64,000 bases of DNA from Escherichia phage MiataMamis. Under the pieces are notes generated by a model that was not told the origin of the DNA, did not search any database, and saw only the letters and a list, made by a program, of their open reading frames with translations. Location of the stretch: the sequence record PP925834.1; one strand, given 5' to 3'. Numbering within the stretch: the stretch's first letter is position 1; the number at the start of each line of letters is the position of its first letter. This document shows positions 2,468 to 8,764 of this stretch, one piece after another. A program made the translations under genes and the position numbers.

Positions 2468-3652
2468 TTAAGCTTTAGCCAAAATGGCGCTAAACTCTTC
2501 ACCAAACTCTTTTACAATCTTCATCAGGTTTGGGTATGCTTTGATCAGCTGAGCAACAATCTTGTCACGACCTTTACCGATAAGCAAGGCATTTCCTAAG
2601 GCATTAGGTTTCATCATCGCCATAAAGACCGAGAATACAAAATCTCGGTTCTCGTCCTTGAAGTTTTCCCAAAGGAAATCGAGGAAGTTTGCCACACAGC
2701 TAACAAGATCTTCGTCGGAGATACTTGCATTTTCCATCATATTACGAATAGCGATACAGCCTTCAGATCCAAGAATCCACAAGATGTCTGGCTGTTTAGG
2801 ACCTACATATTCTTTGCAACCTCCTGCCATAATCCGACCGATTTCCGGTAAGTTGCGTTTCTTGGTGTGGTAAGTCCAGATCTCTACCGCTGCAGTGTGA
2901 CCAATAGCACCTTGCAGAAGAACACGGGCCATAGCGTCAGAAATAATACCGCTGTCAAAATCGTGCAAGATATCAGATGCAGCAACCCAAGATCGCGGTG
3001 TGGCAAAAGATGGACAATTAATCTCAGCCATGGCCTCATAATTATCGATAGCTGATGGAACTCTTTTCAGATATCCAATTACAGATGAGTGCACCCCATT
3101 AAGGAATGCGTAGTCCTCAATAAACACCTCTGCATTGCTTGTAACTTCTACAATGATAAAACGGTTAGCCAGAGGGGCTTCGAGCGCCGAAAGAACCGCA
3201 CCATCTGTAGAACGGTTACCAGCAGCCACAAAAACAGAACCCTTAGGGAATGCATAGGTACCGCACTTGTGGTCGAGCATAATTTGCATTGCAACCTTTT
3301 GCAGGTAGTTATCTGCATGAGTGAGCTCATCCAGAAAGATAATTCCGCTCCAGTCAGGATCCGCAGGCCAAAATTCTGGAATTGCAAATACTGTACGTGT
3401 AGTTCCATCCGCTTCTACAGGGATAGGTAGCCCAGATAAGTCGGCAGGATCTTTATCTGACAGTCGCACGTCAACCAGGTTGTCATCTCGCTCACCGAAC
3501 ATATTGTCGGCGATCTGCTTCATCACCTGGCTCTTTCCCACGCCCATTGGTCCTAAAATCAGGACAGATCGGTTATGACGCTGGGCAAACTGAATGATAG
3601 CTGGCAACTCACGGACAGTGATTTGACCACTTTCAAATACGTTTCTTGACAT
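2468..3652 (-). CDS. MoxR-like AAA+ ATPase (AAA_5/CbbQ/CobS-like)
   Basis: 394 aa; Walker A LILGPMGVGKSQ, Walker B IIFLDELTHAD; start overlaps upstream stop. Confidence 0.8.
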   Translation of the reverse strand: MSRNVFESGQITVRELPAIIQFAQRHNRSVLILGPMGVGKSQVMKQIADNMFGERDDNLVDVRLSDKDPADLSGLPIPVEADGTTRTVFAIPEFWPADPDWSGIIFLDELTHADNYLQKVAMQIMLDHKCGTYAFPKGSVFVAAGNRSTDGAVLSALEAPLANRFIIVEVTSNAEVFIEDYAFLNGVHSSVIGYLKRVPSAIDNYEAMAEINCPSFATPRSWVAASDILHDFDSGIISDAMARVLLQGAIGHTAAVEIWTYHTKKRNLPEIGRIMAGGCKEYVGPKQPDILWILGSEGCIAIRNMMENASISDEDLVSCVANFLDFLWENFKDENRDFVFSVFMAMMKPNALGNALLIGKGRDKIVAQLIKAYPNLMKIVKEFGEEFSAILAKA

Positions 3653-3921
3653 TAGTAAAAGTCCTCTACTTGTGTGTAAGTGTTTTCAAAGTTTTCCAAA
3701 ACAGATATCACATCGGATCTGTCAATATCATACGTGACTCTCCAGTTGTACGCAACCCTTTCTGCTGTTGCCTCTTCTGGCGATAGTCGTCTGCTGGCAT
3801 AAAAGAGTGTTGGAGTACACTTTCTTGCTTGCCCTCTAACTTTCCCATAATAATATCTGTGAATATCTTTGTCAAAATTTAACTCTTTTTCTGCACGAAG
3901 TTCATATTGCTGGTATAACAT
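3652..3921 (-). CDS. hypothetical protein (89 aa)
   Basis: ORF track; tight operon spacing. Confidence 0.45.
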   Translation of the reverse strand: MLYQQYELRAEKELNFDKDIHRYYYGKVRGQARKCTPTLFYASRRLSPEEATAERVAYNWRVTYDIDRSDVISVLENFENTYTQVEDFY

Positions 3922-3965
3922 CTCTACTACTCCTTAAGCAGCATCCTTGCCGCCATTCCTGCCCA

Positions 3966-4346
3966 CTAAAATGCAGTCCGAATCCAGACAAGGTTCTTAT
4001 CTGCCCAATCATAGAGGCAAGTCATTGCACTATTGAATTGCTCACACGGAGGATAATCTTCTTCCATCTGGCGCATAGCAGAGCCTTGTGGGTAAAGCTC
4101 CCGTGCTGCAAACCACGCGTCGTAGTCATCAACGGTGTCGAAGTAGTATACAACATCCTCCAACTCAGGATCGAACTTTGAACTATCAGGATCCAGTTGT
4201 TCAGGGAACTTGGAGCGTAGCTTACCAGCCACAATACTTGCCAACTCGCTAACATGCTTATTGTCCCACTCCACTAGCTTCCCGTCTTCAGTGATGCGTC
4301 CTAACCACTGATCATGAAGGTCAACTGTTGTCTTCCACTGAGCCAT
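3966..4346 (-). CDS. hypothetical protein (126 aa)
   Basis: ORF track. Confidence 0.5.
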   Translation of the reverse strand: MAQWKTTVDLHDQWLGRITEDGKLVEWDNKHVSELASIVAGKLRSKFPEQLDPDSSKFDPELEDVVYYFDTVDDYDAWFAARELYPQGSAMRQMEEDYPPCEQFNSAMTCLYDWADKNLVWIRTAF

Positions 4347-4348
4347 TA

Positions 4349-7270: not shown

Positions 7271-7275
7271 TGACA

Positions 7276-7290
7276 GGGGCCAATGGCCCC
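7276..7290 (+). terminator. intergenic GC hairpin (GGGGCC-AAT-GGCCCC), attenuator/terminator-like
   Basis: Perfect 6-bp stem followed by TTCTGGAGTTTT; it sequesters the ATG at 7283. Confidence 0.35.
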
Positions 7291-7303
7291 TTCTGGAGTT
7301 TTA

Positions 7304-8764
7304 ATGGATAGCAGAAGTTCAGAAATCATTGCCTCACAGAAAGATGATGCCTTGAGAATGTTGCAGGCTGCACGTATGTATCTCCTTGAAAAGCTGCCGT
7401 TTTATGGCACACTACTGTCAGGGTTGCAGTTCGTAGAAAACCACACATGGTGCTCCACCATGGCAACCGACCATAAACGCATCTATTACAGTCCTGAGTT
7501 CATTATGGGATTGGCTGATGAACGCAAGGCTATTCTTAAGGCTTCTCTAACTGACGAGCAGTTTGAGATGGCTGAAGTTTTCTATTCCCCAAAATCTGTG
7601 AAAGAGGTGGCCTTCCTTCTGTCACATGAGGTGGGGCATATTATCTGTGATCACCTAGTCCGTGGTAAAAGCTTTGAGCCGGAACTGTTCAATATTGCTT
7701 GTGATCACGTTATCAACACAGGTCTTGTGGTTGACTTTAGCAAGCCTCCTTGTGTTTTCTTCCCGAAGGGGAAAAGCACTACGTTCGTGAAAGGTAAACC
7801 TTTTGGCTTCTTAGCCAGCTGCTACTGCGATATGAAGTTTCATGGATGGATTGCTGAGAACGTTTATGCAGTTCTTGATAAGCAAAGAGATCAGAATAAC
7901 GGTAAAAGTAAGAACGGTAAAGGTGAGAACTCTCAATGGGATAAGCGACAAACAGATGATCACATGAGTGGGAACGGTGGCACCAGTGATGATCTTGGAA
8001 AAGCTATGGGGTATGATCAGCCACAACCTGTAATCAGCCAATCTGATAAAGATCAGGCCATGCAGGACTCTGGTGATATGCTGGAGGCAGCAATGCAAGC
8101 GTCCGGAGGCCGTTGCCCTGAGGCGGTGCGTGAGTTTGTCAAGAACAGAGGTAAGCCTGTAATCAACTATATAGACATCATTAAGCAACGCATGTTGTCT
8201 AAACGAAAGGCTGAACTGACCTACAGAAAACCTGGTCGCCGATCTGGGTCTTTGACCAGCACAATGCGAAAAGTTGGGGCTATAAACAAGAACCAGCACG
8301 TTATTGTTCCTGGTCGTAATCCGGAAAACACTATAGATATTGTGGTGGCTTTAGACGTTTCTGGCTCGATCTCTCAAAGAACTTTAAAGAAAATGTTCAA
8401 TGAAATCACCGGATTGTGCAATCTGTATAAAGAGTTTAAGGTTACAATGTTCTGTTGGTCAACTGAGGTTGGAGAGGTTAAAGTATACACTCGCGGCAAC
8501 ATAGACGAGATGATTAACTATGAGGTCCACTCAACATGGGGCACAACAGCTGCTTGCGTGTTCGAGTATCTGGATGCCAACATACCGAATGCAAAAGATG
8601 TCATCGTCCTGACCGACCTATACTTTGAGCATAACTTTGAACAAAAGGCTGTTGACAACAAGTGGAAAAAGTACGATACTTTATGGGTTCTAACCGAAGG
8701 GTATAATAAAAATTATATCCCGAGCTTTGGGAAAACTGTGGAATTAATCGAGTACGCTAAGTAA
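7304..8764 (+). CDS. VWA-domain protein with N-terminal putative metallopeptidase domain (DUF2201-like, MoxR-associated type)
   Basis: HExxH motif SHEVGHIICDH in the N-terminal half; MIDAS-like VVALDVSGSIS in the C-terminal half; start set at ATG 7304 (GGAG SD 7 nt upstream), track start was 7283. Confidence 0.7.
   Translation: MDSRSSEIIASQKDDALRMLQAARMYLLEKLPFYGTLLSGLQFVENHTWCSTMATDHKRIYYSPEFIMGLADERKAILKASLTDEQFEMAEVFYSPKSVKEVAFLLSHEVGHIICDHLVRGKSFEPELFNIACDHVINTGLVVDFSKPPCVFFPKGKSTTFVKGKPFGFLASCYCDMKFHGWIAENVYAVLDKQRDQNNGKSKNGKGENSQWDKRQTDDHMSGNGGTSDDLGKAMGYDQPQPVISQSDKDQAMQDSGDMLEAAMQASGGRCPEAVREFVKNRGKPVINYIDIIKQRMLSKRKAELTYRKPGRRSGSLTSTMRKVGAINKNQHVIVPGRNPENTIDIVVALDVSGSISQRTLKKMFNEITGLCNLYKEFKVTMFCWSTEVGEVKVYTRGNIDEMINYEVHSTWGTTAACVFEYLDANIPNAKDVIVLTDLYFEHNFEQKAVDNKWKKYDTLWVLTEGYNKNYIPSFGKTVELIEYAK

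Follow-up and report, generated by a model that had tools for sequence, protein, structure and literature searches.

In bacterial NorQ-NorD, the pore of NorQ is plugged by a finger of NorD, a MIDAS site holds the target, and the motor remodels a linker (PMC13036017, PMC9976466). Among phages, a MoxR/metallopeptidase-vWA pair has been described in jumbo phages and termed a "chaperone-cochaperone" (Iyer et al. 2021, PMC7824862), an in silico description that predates the present analysis. For the pair of the group 2.2 jumbo phages a role in virion assembly was proposed, by comparison with Acidianus two-tailed virus and its MoxR protein p618 (PMC7824862). In rV5-like genomes the pair had also been annotated earlier, rV5 gene 4 being named "MoxR - ATPase". 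Literature searches covering any phage found no experiments on the interaction of the two proteins, their ATPase or peptidase activity, or the timing of their expression.

The window analyzed here, a stretch of 64,000 nucleotides from Escherichia phage MiataMamis, encodes such a pair. Both ORFs are real and correctly identified, at the positions first proposed from the sequence alone. They correspond to rV5 gene 4 (gp4) and rV5 gene 12 (gp12), and together they are almost certainly a module of the N4 gp24/gp25 type, consisting of a MoxR-class ATPase and a DUF2201 protein. The ATPase has the following features:

2468..3652, minus strand: ORF of the MoxR-class AAA+ ATPase, 394 aa; rV5 gp4, homologue of N4 gp24
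3530-3553, minus strand: Walker A, GPMGVGKS, invariant in the family
3383-3430, minus strand: helix-2-insert hairpin
3326-3331, minus strand: Walker B, DE, invariant in the family
3245-3274, minus strand: pre-sensor-1 hairpin
3215-3217, minus strand: sensor 1, N146, invariant in the family
3161-3163, minus strand: arginine finger, R164, invariant in the family
2993-2995, minus strand: sensor 2, R220, invariant in the family

The full set of catalytic motifs is intact, and residues ~270-394 make up an additional C-terminal helical domain. The sequence-only reading had called this protein a MoxR-type ATPase and had named an AAA_5 profile match as a check. Taken literally, that check fails because the direct Pfam match to AAA_5 is below threshold (16.7 bits versus a cutoff of 22, E=0.0075). 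However, the class assignment is recovered from the Pfam domains of homologues, PF07726 (AAA_3) and PF07728, carried at ~35% identity (E=1e-45), from the invariant motifs, and from structural matches in the PDB: a Foldseek search with the AF2 model (pLDDT 86) gives NorQ, CbbQ2, cso-CbbQ and CHU_0153 as top matches, with NorQ the closest. Alignment with N4 gp24 by hhalign yields a probability of 99.9% (E=1.8e-36).

The second protein contains an N-terminal zincin-like domain, then a disordered/helical linker, and then a C-terminal VWA domain (AF2 model, pLDDT 83):

7304..8764, plus strand: DUF2201 protein, 486 aa; rV5 gp12, homologue of N4 gp25
7304..7903, plus strand: putative metallopeptidase domain, aa 1-200
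7625-7654, plus strand: active-site helix HEVGHIICDH (H108, E109, H112, H117)
7703-7705, plus strand: D134 of the metallopeptidase domain, invariant
7889..8320, plus strand: linker region, placed by the pLDDT profile
8216-8242, plus strand: basic motif LTYRKPGRR, nearly invariant, directly before the first VWA strand
8321..8764, plus strand: VWA domain with a complete MIDAS site
8354-8368, plus strand: MIDAS DVSGS, with T414 at 8543-8545 and D438 at 8615-8617

The ORF can be opened at 7283 or 7304; the latter start is right: a GGAG precedes it by 9 nt, and the other ATG, at 7283, is part of a hairpin stem. The combination of HExxH and VWA MIDAS motifs noted in the sequence-only reading is borne out by matches to PF13203 (E=4e-28) and PF09967 (E=4e-11), both above gathering scores. 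HEVGH, H117, D134 and the MIDAS residues (D351-x-S-x-S355, T414, D438) are invariant across the DUF2201 family, and the alignment with N4 gp25 is strong (hhalign E=8.2e-55). The only solved relatives of the metallopeptidase domain are M48 peptidases (BepA, Ste24), which share the HExxHxxxxH helix (E~0.1), and there are weak minigluzincin and HtpX matches. The N-terminal domain is thus a putative M48-like HExxH zincin peptidase, an assignment weakened because the Pfam family itself is labelled "putative" and the M48 helix match is marginal. Within the linker, aa 201-228 are disordered (pLDDT <50) and rich in Gly, Asn and Asp, with helices following. R312 and R313 of the LTYRKPGRR motif are conserved in at least 90% of sequences; by comparison with the linker/finger of NorD, this motif may contact the ATPase. 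The rV5 reference sequence carries E109G and a frameshift in gene 12, with gene 4 intact. These lesions may be sequencing errors of an old assembly; if genuine, they mean that laboratory growth does not require the protein.

More than 600 phage records contain the same two-gene module, which occurs in some bacteria as well. Among 74 informative loci, anchored on the ATPase and lying outside the split lineages, the two genes are adjacent and on the same strand in 72 and on opposite strands in none, so that the pair does normally occupy one operon, as had been claimed. They are also adjacent in Certrevirus phage F5M1E, POP18, Kashira, 4L372D and RaK2; RaK2 and LUZ7 have their own copies annotated as gp24-like and gp25-like. 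Bacterial loci (L017-L019) have the same arrangement, an ATPase adjoining a DUF2201 gene in Sulfurivermis is 31% identical to the window ATPase (E=4e-37), and the bacterial homologues look like ordinary chromosomal two-gene units. N4-like phages have only 14 core genes, two of which are gp24 and gp25 of N4, and the pair has been kept across myovirus, podovirus and jumbo lineages with very different hosts. The ATPase and the DUF2201 protein are halves of one old conserved module.

In the window, the two coding regions lie on opposite strands with 3651 bp between them. The divergent layout, the gap of ~3.6 kb and the back-to-back promoters of the sequence-only reading all hold, the promoters as predicted sigma-70-like sites; in rV5, bidirectional promoters have been reported between genes 10 and 11 (PMC3606486). 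The elements of this region are:

6219->6191, minus strand: predicted leftward promoter TTGACT-17-TATAGT (consensus scan)
6233->6261, plus strand: predicted rightward promoter TTGACA-17-(TG)TACGAT (consensus scan)
3652..6150, minus strand: six small genes (rV5 gp5-gp10) with no assigned function, between the ATPase and the divergent junction
3875->3847, minus strand: strong promoter-like site TTGACA-17-TATTAT (11/12 matches), inside gene 5 and upstream of the ATPase
6293..7270, plus strand: Srd-like "anti-sigma" gene (rV5 gp11), from PHROG matches for Srd and decoy of sigma-70 and from the rV5 paper
7275..7291, plus strand: GC-rich hairpin AGGGGCC-AAT-GGCCCCT, downstream of the Srd-like gene and ahead of the DUF2201 start

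The two predicted promoters share a junction of 142 bp between the arms, their -35 boxes make a palindrome, GTCAAC...GTTGAC (6215-6237), and PhagePromoter predicts the same back-to-back sites in the deposited genome of phage Gotham. The Srd-like gene is the first gene of the rightward arm and adjoins the DUF2201 gene on its 5' side. The hairpin, whose counterpart is annotated as a terminator in phage Murica, is a candidate attenuator or RNA-stability element. Because the ATPase and DUF2201 genes are both downstream of the same promoters, they are probably still co-produced early by host RNA polymerase.

The split is found only in Vequintavirus, Av-05, KE23 and Hena1, and it is very probably a derived state limited to one sub-clade of the Vequintavirinae. 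Ancestrally, the ATPase gene would have been followed directly by the DUF2201 gene and co-transcribed with it; a rearrangement would then have put the ATPase on the opposite arm in the ancestor shared by Vequintavirus, Avunavirus, Seunavirus and Henunavirus. In its simplest version this would be a single inversion across the bidirectional early promoter, and the case for an inversion is evenly balanced. In Kashira, the adjacent pair and a homologue of Srd are on opposite arms, and the gene order of the window, with Srd abutting DUF2201, results if everything from Srd to the ATPase is inverted; this reading uses one marker gene, the Srd-like gene. Inversion also predicts that window gene 10 should match the first rightward gene of Kashira, and no similarity was found between these two genes (E=5.1); genes of the gene 10 type diverge very fast, with 19% identity even inside the split clade. 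The split is a lineage-specific rearrangement without evident functional novelty. In all split lineages sampled, both genes are present, intact and under purifying selection, down to 43-51% protein identity. Sequence comparisons indicate that this selection is strong for both genes, with dN/dS of 0.006-0.02 for the ATPase and 0.07-0.10 for DUF2201. Across 12 lineages the two proteins diverge in step (rho=0.89), which is a sign of co-inheritance, not of physical contact.

The best overall explanation, an old conserved module split by a rearrangement whose most likely role is that of an ATP-driven remodelling/processing protease, is on balance probable when the judgements on its separate steps (identity, split, inversion, proteolysis) are blended. 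With NorQ-NorD, CbbQ-CbbO and RavA-ViaA as analogues, one would expect the ATPase to assemble as a hexamer and one DUF2201 molecule to dock via its VWA side. The MIDAS metal would grip an acidic residue of a specific target protein, and ATP hydrolysis would tug the adaptor linker or the target, allowing the tethered HExxH domain to cut the latter. Two polypeptides would thereby make up a substrate-selective, ATP-dependent processing protease. It would work in the cytoplasm during early or mid infection, and its target would be a non-virion protein, either one of the host or one for replication or transcription of the phage. The AF2 model of the DUF2201 protein has the same layout as NorD (N-domain, disordered linker, VWA), and no membrane-like segments were found in its sequence. 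ATP-coupled proteolysis itself, which is argued from analogy, is tentatively proposed and somewhat short of probable: to our knowledge, the characterized bacterial MoxR-VWA pairs carry out metal/cofactor insertion or chaperoning and none is a protease, which counts against it.

An alternative is that the pair is a virion-assembly chaperone with a maturation protease, folding or assembling structural proteins and processing them. This is the sole published functional proposal for the family (PMC7824862), MoxR-VWA pairs are mostly assembly or maturation chaperones, and a maturation protease would fit the invariant peptidase residues. However, both genes are within ~2.5 kb of the predicted early promoters, their neighbors are early genes (the Srd-like gene, rIIA), and the structural module is far off. 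In N4 the two genes give middle transcripts and are found beside those for dCTP deaminase and thymidylate synthase, not among late structural genes, and pairs in other phages adjoin ThyA, ThyX, dUTPase and exonuclease genes. Mass spectrometry provides no evidence of gp4 or gp12 in rV5 virions, although a chaperone need not be packaged. A virion-assembly function is thus unlikely.

Equally unlikely is a counter-defense or host-takeover effector that disables or destroys a host immunity or housekeeping protein early in infection, although some host-takeover role for the pair is possible. The early-region site beside the Srd-like gene and near rIIA/rIIB, which counter Rex exclusion, speaks for such an effector, an ATP-dependent protease aimed at a chosen target is plausible as a weapon, and bacterial conflict systems do use MoxR-vWA modules (PMC7159879). 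The sequence-only reading had drawn on this link to NTP-dependent conflict systems; it is not supported, since those systems are ternary, the VMAP/effector component is absent here, and PADLOC returned no meaningful match. Its suggestion of counter-defense is weakened as well. Anti-defense genes are typically accessory, variable and host-specific. The present pair is unlike them because it is core in N4-like phages, is retained in lineages with very different hosts, is under strong purifying selection (dN/dS 0.006-0.10), and is in bacteria an ordinary-looking stand-alone chromosomal operon without defense context. As a whole, this first interpretation of the pair is partly supported.

The pair might instead insert metal or a cofactor into a phage enzyme such as ribonucleotide reductase, with HExxH holding or delivering the metal and no peptide being cut. 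Every well-studied bacterial MoxR/chelatase-type ATPase with a VWA partner works in this way, as in NorQD (Fe), CoxDE (Cu/Mo), CobST (Co) and BchID (Mg); in structure the ATPase matches NorQ best, the module lies repeatedly among nucleotide-metabolism genes, and rV5 encodes aerobic and anaerobic ribonucleotide reductases (PMC3606486). Against this, zincin hydrolases use the invariant Glu of HExxH as their general base, whereas metal binding alone would not require it, the helix resembles that of M48 proteases, and the loci examined show no metalloenzyme gene consistently linked to the pair, making metal insertion quite improbable. Finally, it is highly improbable that the two proteins are uncoupled in this lineage, each working alone or with another partner and their co-occurrence a historical leftover: the opposite strands, the distance of 3.65 kb and the apparent inactivation of rV5 gene 12 beside an intact gene 4 favor this, but both genes are conserved in each of the split lineages sampled, no motif relevant to the interaction has been lost, the proteins diverge together, no other VWA protein or MoxR ATPase was found in this region of the window, and the rV5 lesions are possibly errors.

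Compared with known systems, the proposed ATP-dependent processing protease has a functional analogy without homology in FtsH and other AAA+ proteases, in which an AAA+ motor and an HExxH zinc peptidase achieve selective, ATP-dependent proteolysis; FtsH is one membrane-anchored polypeptide of another AAA+ clade, with a peptidase of family M41 and no VWA adaptor. The MoxR-vWA "ternary" conflict systems (Kaur et al. 2020, PMC7159879) also pair a MoxR ATPase with a vWA protein, to which a metallopeptidase is occasionally fused, but their defining features are a third component (VMAP, FtsH or beta-propeller) and variable effector domains. These features are absent from the window pair and its cellular homologues, and the pair does not fit such a system. 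CbbQ-CbbO and RavA-ViaA share a MoxR hexamer with a single VWA adaptor that binds the target via its MIDAS, and their genes usually form one operon; their partners differ (Rubisco; fumarate reductase, Nuo and LdcI), as do their domain contexts, which contain no peptidase domain. NorQ-NorD supplies nitric oxide reductase with non-heme iron; there, the N-domain of NorD is no peptidase, NorQ is without the C-terminal extension of the window ATPase, and sequence identity is only 16-20%. The system acts on a membrane respiratory enzyme, which receives its metal and is not cut. [quoted passage not shown] 2021, PMC7824862) belongs to the same two families with the same domain architecture, and the window proteins recover RaK2, the phAPEC6/SP27 group and PA5oct-like phages alike. 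Iyer et al. worked purely in silico, proposed virion assembly, and did not mention rV5-like phages, N4 or any split arrangement. In N4 gp24 (AAA ATPase) and gp25 (vWFA protein), the core pair of the Schitoviridae, the genes are adjacent, co-directional and middle-transcribed by phage RNAP II, whereas those of the window are split behind predicted host-type promoters, and the rV5-type proteins are longer, the ATPase having the C-terminal helical extension and the peptidase domain two insertions. Nevertheless, both N4 proteins are clear homologues, gp25 also matches PF13203 and PF09967, and in both phages the pair is apparently non-structural and expressed before the late genes.

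The ATPase gene (2468-3652, minus strand; 394 aa; rV5 gene 4, encoding gp4) and the DUF2201 gene (7304-8764, plus strand; 486 aa; rV5 gene 12, encoding gp12) are both present as open reading frames, and their coding regions lie 3651 bp apart on opposite strands, in agreement with the divergent arrangement and ~3.6-kb gap described in the sequence-only reading. Over 7 kb, this region shares 97-98% identity with more than 100 Vequintavirus genomes (rV5-like coliphages, e.g., WalterGehring, LL12, and Murica). In the rV5 genome paper, gene 4 appears as "MoxR - ATPase" and gene 12 as a conserved hypothetical with PF13203, and the gene table there gives no virion mass spectrometry for either gp4 or gp12 (PMC3606486 Table S3). 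Among deposited labels, gene 4 is a "MoxR ATPase" or "ATPase", and gene 12 is a "putative metallopeptidase", a "VWA-like domain containing protein" or, wrongly, an "HNH endonuclease". The back-to-back promoters proposed earlier correspond to two predicted σ70-like sites with palindromic -35 boxes in the 142-bp junction between rV5 genes 10 and 11. The sites are PhagePromoter predictions in phage Gotham, and bidirectional promoters at this junction have been reported for rV5 (PMC3606486). As far as these predictions go, the rV5-type pair would lie behind host-type early promoters.

A perfect 29-nt inverted repeat, TACCGATGTCTAAAGTTACTTATCGTGCA, flanks the bidirectional promoter junction at 4939-4967 (minus strand) and 6801-6829 (plus strand), with 1833 nt separating its arms; it occurs twice in the window, with zero occurrences expected by chance. 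The repeat codes for LPMSKVTYRA, both at the start of gene 8 and in-frame inside the Srd-like gene 11, just past an acidic linker. Both arms are exact in Gotham, Murica, and rV5_ev146; an exact match is absent from Av-05, KE23, and Hena1. Gene conversion may have left the repeat as a footprint; alternatively, it could be a shared element for translation initiation or regulation, or a substrate on which the 1.9-kb promoter segment inverts. Directly 3' of the DUF2201 gene, in the region of rV5 genes 13/14-15, there are three tandem 87-aa ORFs (8780-9043, 9043-9306, and 9306-9569, plus strand) that resemble paralogues in their similar N-termini; the third has a very high dS between genomes, ~0.4, and a dN/dS of ~0.01. 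The leftward early arm contains a gene for a SleB-like cell-wall hydrolase (1529-2029, minus strand; PF07486, E=4e-19) whose N-terminus has a signal-like hydrophobic segment; the gene lies just beyond a terminator-like hairpin (2050-2065) and adjoins rIIA. In phage N4, too, rIIA/rIIB are found within ~4 kb of gp24/gp25. Sixteen unannotated "Campylobacter phage" records (e.g., C12, A142, C9, D1, and A147) are 98-99% identical to the Vequintavirus of the window, which suggests that their Campylobacter jejuni host is a mis-assignment or contamination.

Because direct matches of the ATPase in Pfam, NCBIfam, and PADLOC searches are limited to sub-threshold, generic P-loop/AAA hits, they cannot classify the protein; its class was settled by homologues and structure. 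AAA_5 (PF07728) reaches 16.7 bits against a gathering cutoff of 22 (E=0.0075), and the MoxR family model, PF07726 (AAA_3), gives no match in the direct Pfam search. Since homologues at ~35% identity (E=1e-45) carry PF07726 and PF07728, and sometimes PF20030, the sub-threshold AAA_5 score is attributed to divergence and is compatible with membership. In alignments of 24 and 56 sequences, there is no variation at GPMGVGK40S, D108-E109, N146, R164, or R220; Walker A, Walker B, sensor 1, the arginine finger, and sensor 2 are all intact, at verified coordinates. An AF2 model (pLDDT 86) places a β-hairpin at residues 75-90, between β2 and Walker B, and short paired strands at 128-134, preceding sensor 1; as modelled, the ATPase appears to have the helix-2 insert and pre-sensor-1 β-hairpin of AAA+ clade 7. 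The top 14 Foldseek matches of the model are NorQ and CbbQ2 (E=3e-08 to 8e-07, TM 0.60-0.67 on the target), cso-CbbQ and CHU_0153 are among the further ones, and all of the best PDB matches are MoxR proteins. When compared with solved structures by sequence, the match is confined to the Clp/Hsp100 P-loop region. The earlier assignment to the MoxR type is thus upheld by homologues, motifs, and structure, although not by the AAA_5 profile. The catalytic machinery of the ATPase is intact and of the MoxR type, and gp4 is a putative MoxR-class AAA+ ATPase, for which a hexamer and ATP hydrolysis would be expected from its class.

Both of the profiles proposed for the DUF2201 protein exceed their gathering scores. 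PF13203 gives 99.1 bits (cutoff 23.2) over residues 96-321 of the 493-aa ORF that results from a start at 7283, and PF09967, located C-terminal to it, gives 43.6 bits (cutoff 26.4) over residues 353-488 of the same ORF. H108, E109, H112, H117, and D134 are invariant in DUF2201 alignments of 35, 55, and 14 sequences, and the VWA fold has a complete MIDAS site (DxSxS...T...D). The MIDAS and HExxH motifs of gp12 are intact; a peptidase role is putative. In the AF2 model, the N-domain is followed by a disordered linker (pLDDT <50, residues 201-228), helices, and then the VWA domain. A profile of the N-domain matches BepA/Ste24 over only the 26-31 residues surrounding HExxHxxxxH (E=0.1 to 1.3), and among solved structures the DUF2201 profile finds integrin I-domains and, weakly, M48 and minigluzincin peptidases. 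Sequence searches of solved structures returned none for any member of the DUF2201 or ATPase families, and the literature searched holds no characterised DUF2201 family member. Membrane-like segments were found in neither the ATPase nor the DUF2201 protein. A protein of 819 aa (P0145), whose match to PF01435 (E=0.003) is below cutoff, was considered as an ATPase-DUF2201 fusion and rejected; it proved to be a DUF2201 protein that is extended at its N-terminus and has a long linker and, as such, provides no Rosetta-stone support.

The "HNH endonuclease" or "homing endonuclease" label is widespread, being attached to the DUF2201 protein of the window, N4 gp25 (3165-4307 of the N4 locus), rV5 gp12, and many RefSeq phage records. 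Since there is no HNH domain in the DUF2201 protein, we reject these labels as a propagated mis-annotation, apparently via PHROG 1314. The 89-aa gene 5 (3652-3921) has been called an "ATPase" through PHROG 13164 and lacks any ATPase domain. In the rV5 reference itself (NC_011041, 7756-9217, corresponding to 7304-8764 of the window), gene 12 carries HGVGH in place of HEVGH (E109G), together with a 1-nt insertion at codon 417, just after MIDAS T414, that cuts the VWA domain short and gives rise to the annotated "gene 13". Gene 12 is intact in the window, Murica, Gotham, and rV5_ev146, and the ATPase gene of rV5 is also intact. The lesions represent either a dead gp12 in the laboratory strain or errors of an old assembly; if the former is real, the gene would be dispensable in culture. 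With 43 differing sites within gene 12, rV5_ev146 is not a re-sequencing of the rV5 strain and thus cannot serve to check the lesions.

Comparison with other phages and with bacteria indicates that the ATPase and the DUF2201 protein form a genuine pair. In profile-profile alignment (hhalign), the ATPase matches N4 gp24 (probability 99.9%, E=1.8e-36) and the DUF2201 protein matches N4 gp25 (probability 100%, E=8.2e-55), which itself contains PF13203 (3e-87) and PF09967 (1e-46) and whose gene is adjacent to that of gp24. These two belong to the set of 14 core genes of N4-like phages, and they are made as middle transcripts (PMC4193335, PMC2784036); the N4 genome annotation likened them to two Streptomyces coelicolor proteins. 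The ATPase is also 31% identical (E=4e-37) to an AAA gene immediately upstream of DUF2201 in the Sulfurivermis fontis chromosome and, in an N4-like Sulfitobacter phage, 27% identical (E=7e-18) to a gene without annotation that lies upstream of DUF2201. By tblastn, 649 phage records contain the DUF2201 protein and 812 contain the ATPase, ranging over Vequintavirinae, N4-like podoviruses, and jumbo phages (RaK2, whose copies are annotated as "gp24-like" and "gp25-like", the phAPEC6/SP27 group, PA5oct-like phages, and Atu_ph07). Divergence of the two proteins is correlated across 12 lineages (Spearman rho 0.89), a value that shows co-inheritance and not contact. Genes for dCTP/dCMP deaminase, thymidylate synthase, dUTPase, and exonuclease neighbour the pair in N4, RaK2, 4L372D, and metagenomic phages. 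The possibility that the cellular loci share a conserved third gene was rejected, as the downstream neighbours differ between Sulfurivermis and three further loci (L017-L019), and the common upstream genes (thioredoxin, Hsp15-like, and HtpG) were set aside because the genomes are closely related. The literature searched gave no function, phenotype, expression profile, or essentiality for either gene.

The earlier statement that such a pair normally sits in one operon was borne out by a survey of 84 ATPase-anchored loci (4 genome or MAG contigs and 80 from IMG/VR) scored with a DUF2201 HMM. Among the 74 informative loci, which have enough downstream sequence and are probably not phylogenetically independent, DUF2201 is located downstream on the same strand, within ~550 nt of the ATPase, in 72, and on the opposite strand in none. 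One of the only two informative loci without DUF2201 is an IMG/VR contig (IMGVR_UViG_3300048042_000013) in which the 8 kb to each side of a full-length ATPase (7947-9185, 28% identity) contain no DUF2201; loss of the partner, or a more distant location, may account for this. The pair is likewise adjacent in Certrevirus phage F5M1E, POP18, Kashira, Aeromonas phage 4L372D, and RaK2. In Ettore, a PA5oct-like Pseudomonas phage, the genes (964-6149) are co-directional with four genes (~3 kb) between them, one of which encodes a 498-aa protein also called a "homing endonuclease"; the pair has loosened here independently and to a lesser degree.

The split, divergent arrangement, with gaps of 3.7-4.2 kb, characterises Vequintavirus, Avunavirus Av-05, Seunavirus KE23, and Henunavirus Hena1; at the protein level, identity to the window is only 43-51%. 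Given adjacency elsewhere and this degree of divergence, the split is derived and old, within one Vequintavirinae sub-clade. In Vequintavirinae relatives with an adjacent pair, the pair lies ~2 kb downstream of a divergent junction, and in Kashira the Srd-like gene is on the arm opposite the pair. Inverting the Kashira segment from Srd to the ATPase gives exactly the window order: ATPase (minus), junction, and Srd (plus) abutting DUF2201 (plus). Inversion would be the simplest model of the split, with one marker gene as its basis; in a second synteny comparison, window gene 10 has no similarity to the first rightward gene of Kashira, and it is barely recognisable even in Av-05, a member of the split clade. 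Transposition of the ATPase gene is a possible alternative. Whichever kind of rearrangement occurred, both genes are within ~2.5 kb of a common predicted bidirectional promoter, which would preserve co-regulation and thus allow an operon pair to survive separation. Both genes are under strong purifying selection: the ATPase has 39-40 synonymous and 1-3 non-synonymous differences (dN/dS 0.006-0.02), and the dN/dS of DUF2201 is 0.07-0.10.

What appears the most likely mechanism is modelled on NorQ-NorD, the best-resolved MoxR-VWA pair. There, a VWA finger enters the hexamer pore, the NorD MIDAS binds not the ATPase but an acidic residue of the target, and the linker that leads to the N-domain is remodelled by the motor (PMC13036017, PMC9976466). 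By analogy, one gp12 would dock on a gp4 hexamer and use its MIDAS to hold a specific target; pulling of either the linker or the target, powered by ATP hydrolysis, would then allow the tethered zinc-peptidase domain to cut the target. The outcome would be a substrate-selective, ATP-dependent protease composed of two polypeptides. Immediately ahead of the first VWA strand lies a basic motif that is nearly invariant, (T)YxRPxRR, and that is a speculative candidate for the element that engages the ATPase. Two features of the region are of interest in this regard:

7275-7291, plus strand: GC-rich hairpin (AGGGGCC-AAT-GGCCCCT) between the Srd-like gene and the DUF2201 start, a "terminator" in the Murica annotation
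3875->3847, minus strand: strong promoter-like site that lies within gene 5, on the upstream side of the ATPase, with 11/12 consensus matches

It can be speculated that, together, these could raise the level of the ATPase above that of the adaptor, as a 6:1 complex needs. The predicted host-type early promoters of rV5-type phages, the middle class of the N4 genes, and the nucleotide-metabolism neighbours argue for a cytoplasmic job before morphogenesis. A more far-reaching reading, which is more likely wrong than right, is that pairs of the N4 gp24/gp25 type in large virulent phages (N4-like, rV5-like, and jumbo) and some bacteria constitute an unrecognised class of two-polypeptide AAA+ protease, in which an M48-like zinc peptidase, tethered to a VWA domain, would be driven by a MoxR hexamer against a MIDAS-selected substrate, cleaving one specific protein early in infection. 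If true, this early cleavage would be important enough for core status in N4-like phages, and the rV5-type split would offer a case in which motor and adaptor are naturally separated, in an E. coli phage amenable to genetics.

Other roles for the pair can be envisioned. A metal-insertion chaperone for a phage enzyme would accord with both the characterised MoxR-VWA pairs and the nucleotide-metabolism neighbourhood, but it leaves the invariant catalytic Glu unexplained. The only published proposal, a virion-assembly chaperone plus processing protease (Iyer et al. 2021), fits the general chaperone character of MoxR-VWA pairs and is at odds with the expression class and the genomic neighbourhood. 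Core-gene status, breadth across hosts, very low dN/dS, and the existence of stand-alone bacterial operons speak against the counter-defence or host-takeover effector suggested in the sequence-only reading, despite the early location and the Srd and rII neighbours; PADLOC also provided no meaningful match (P-loop-level matches of <50 residues for the ATPase, E 5.6e-4 or weaker, and none for the DUF2201 protein). Functional decoupling after the split is contradicted by the joint retention and constraint of both genes.

Found in more than 600 phage records, the module is among the most widely conserved non-structural, non-replication gene pairs of large virulent phages, and linking the rV5, N4, and jumbo-phage pairs yields one single question of function. 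This question is tractable in the E. coli phages N4 and EdH4 and in the BASEL Vequintaviruses, with working knock-down and editing tools, CRISPRi-ART and Cas13a (PMC11879866, PMC9712115). Should the model of an ATP-coupled protease be right, it would bring the AAA+ proteases a new architecture and reveal that phage infection includes an early processing step. In evolutionary terms, the split is of modest interest, and neither it nor the presence of the pair would surprise a specialist.

The observation of a split pair is thus confirmed, and its interpretation is supported in part. The proposed connection to conflict systems did not hold up. Ternary MoxR-vWA conflict systems (Kaur 2020) are defined by a third conserved component, and no VMAP, FtsH-like, or β-propeller domain is present in the neighbours within the window or beside the bacterial and phage homologues examined; because this defining component is missing, the pair is not such a system. 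It belongs instead to a known kind, since Pfam models exist and the phage pair has been known as gp24/gp25 since the annotation of N4. In the N4-type module, the VWA gene directly follows the ATPase gene and shares its strand, whereas in the window the same homologous pair, with both proteins related to those of N4, is 3651 bp apart on opposite strands. For the jumbo-phage pair, the reading as MoxR-vWA-metallopeptidase was already published (Iyer et al. 2021). What is new is the explicit link of rV5 gp4/gp12 to N4 gp24/gp25, the jumbo-phage pair, and the bacterial operons, the quantitative demonstration of adjacency as the rule, the recognition of the split as a lineage-specific rearrangement around a bidirectional promoter, and the finding that both halves are still constrained.
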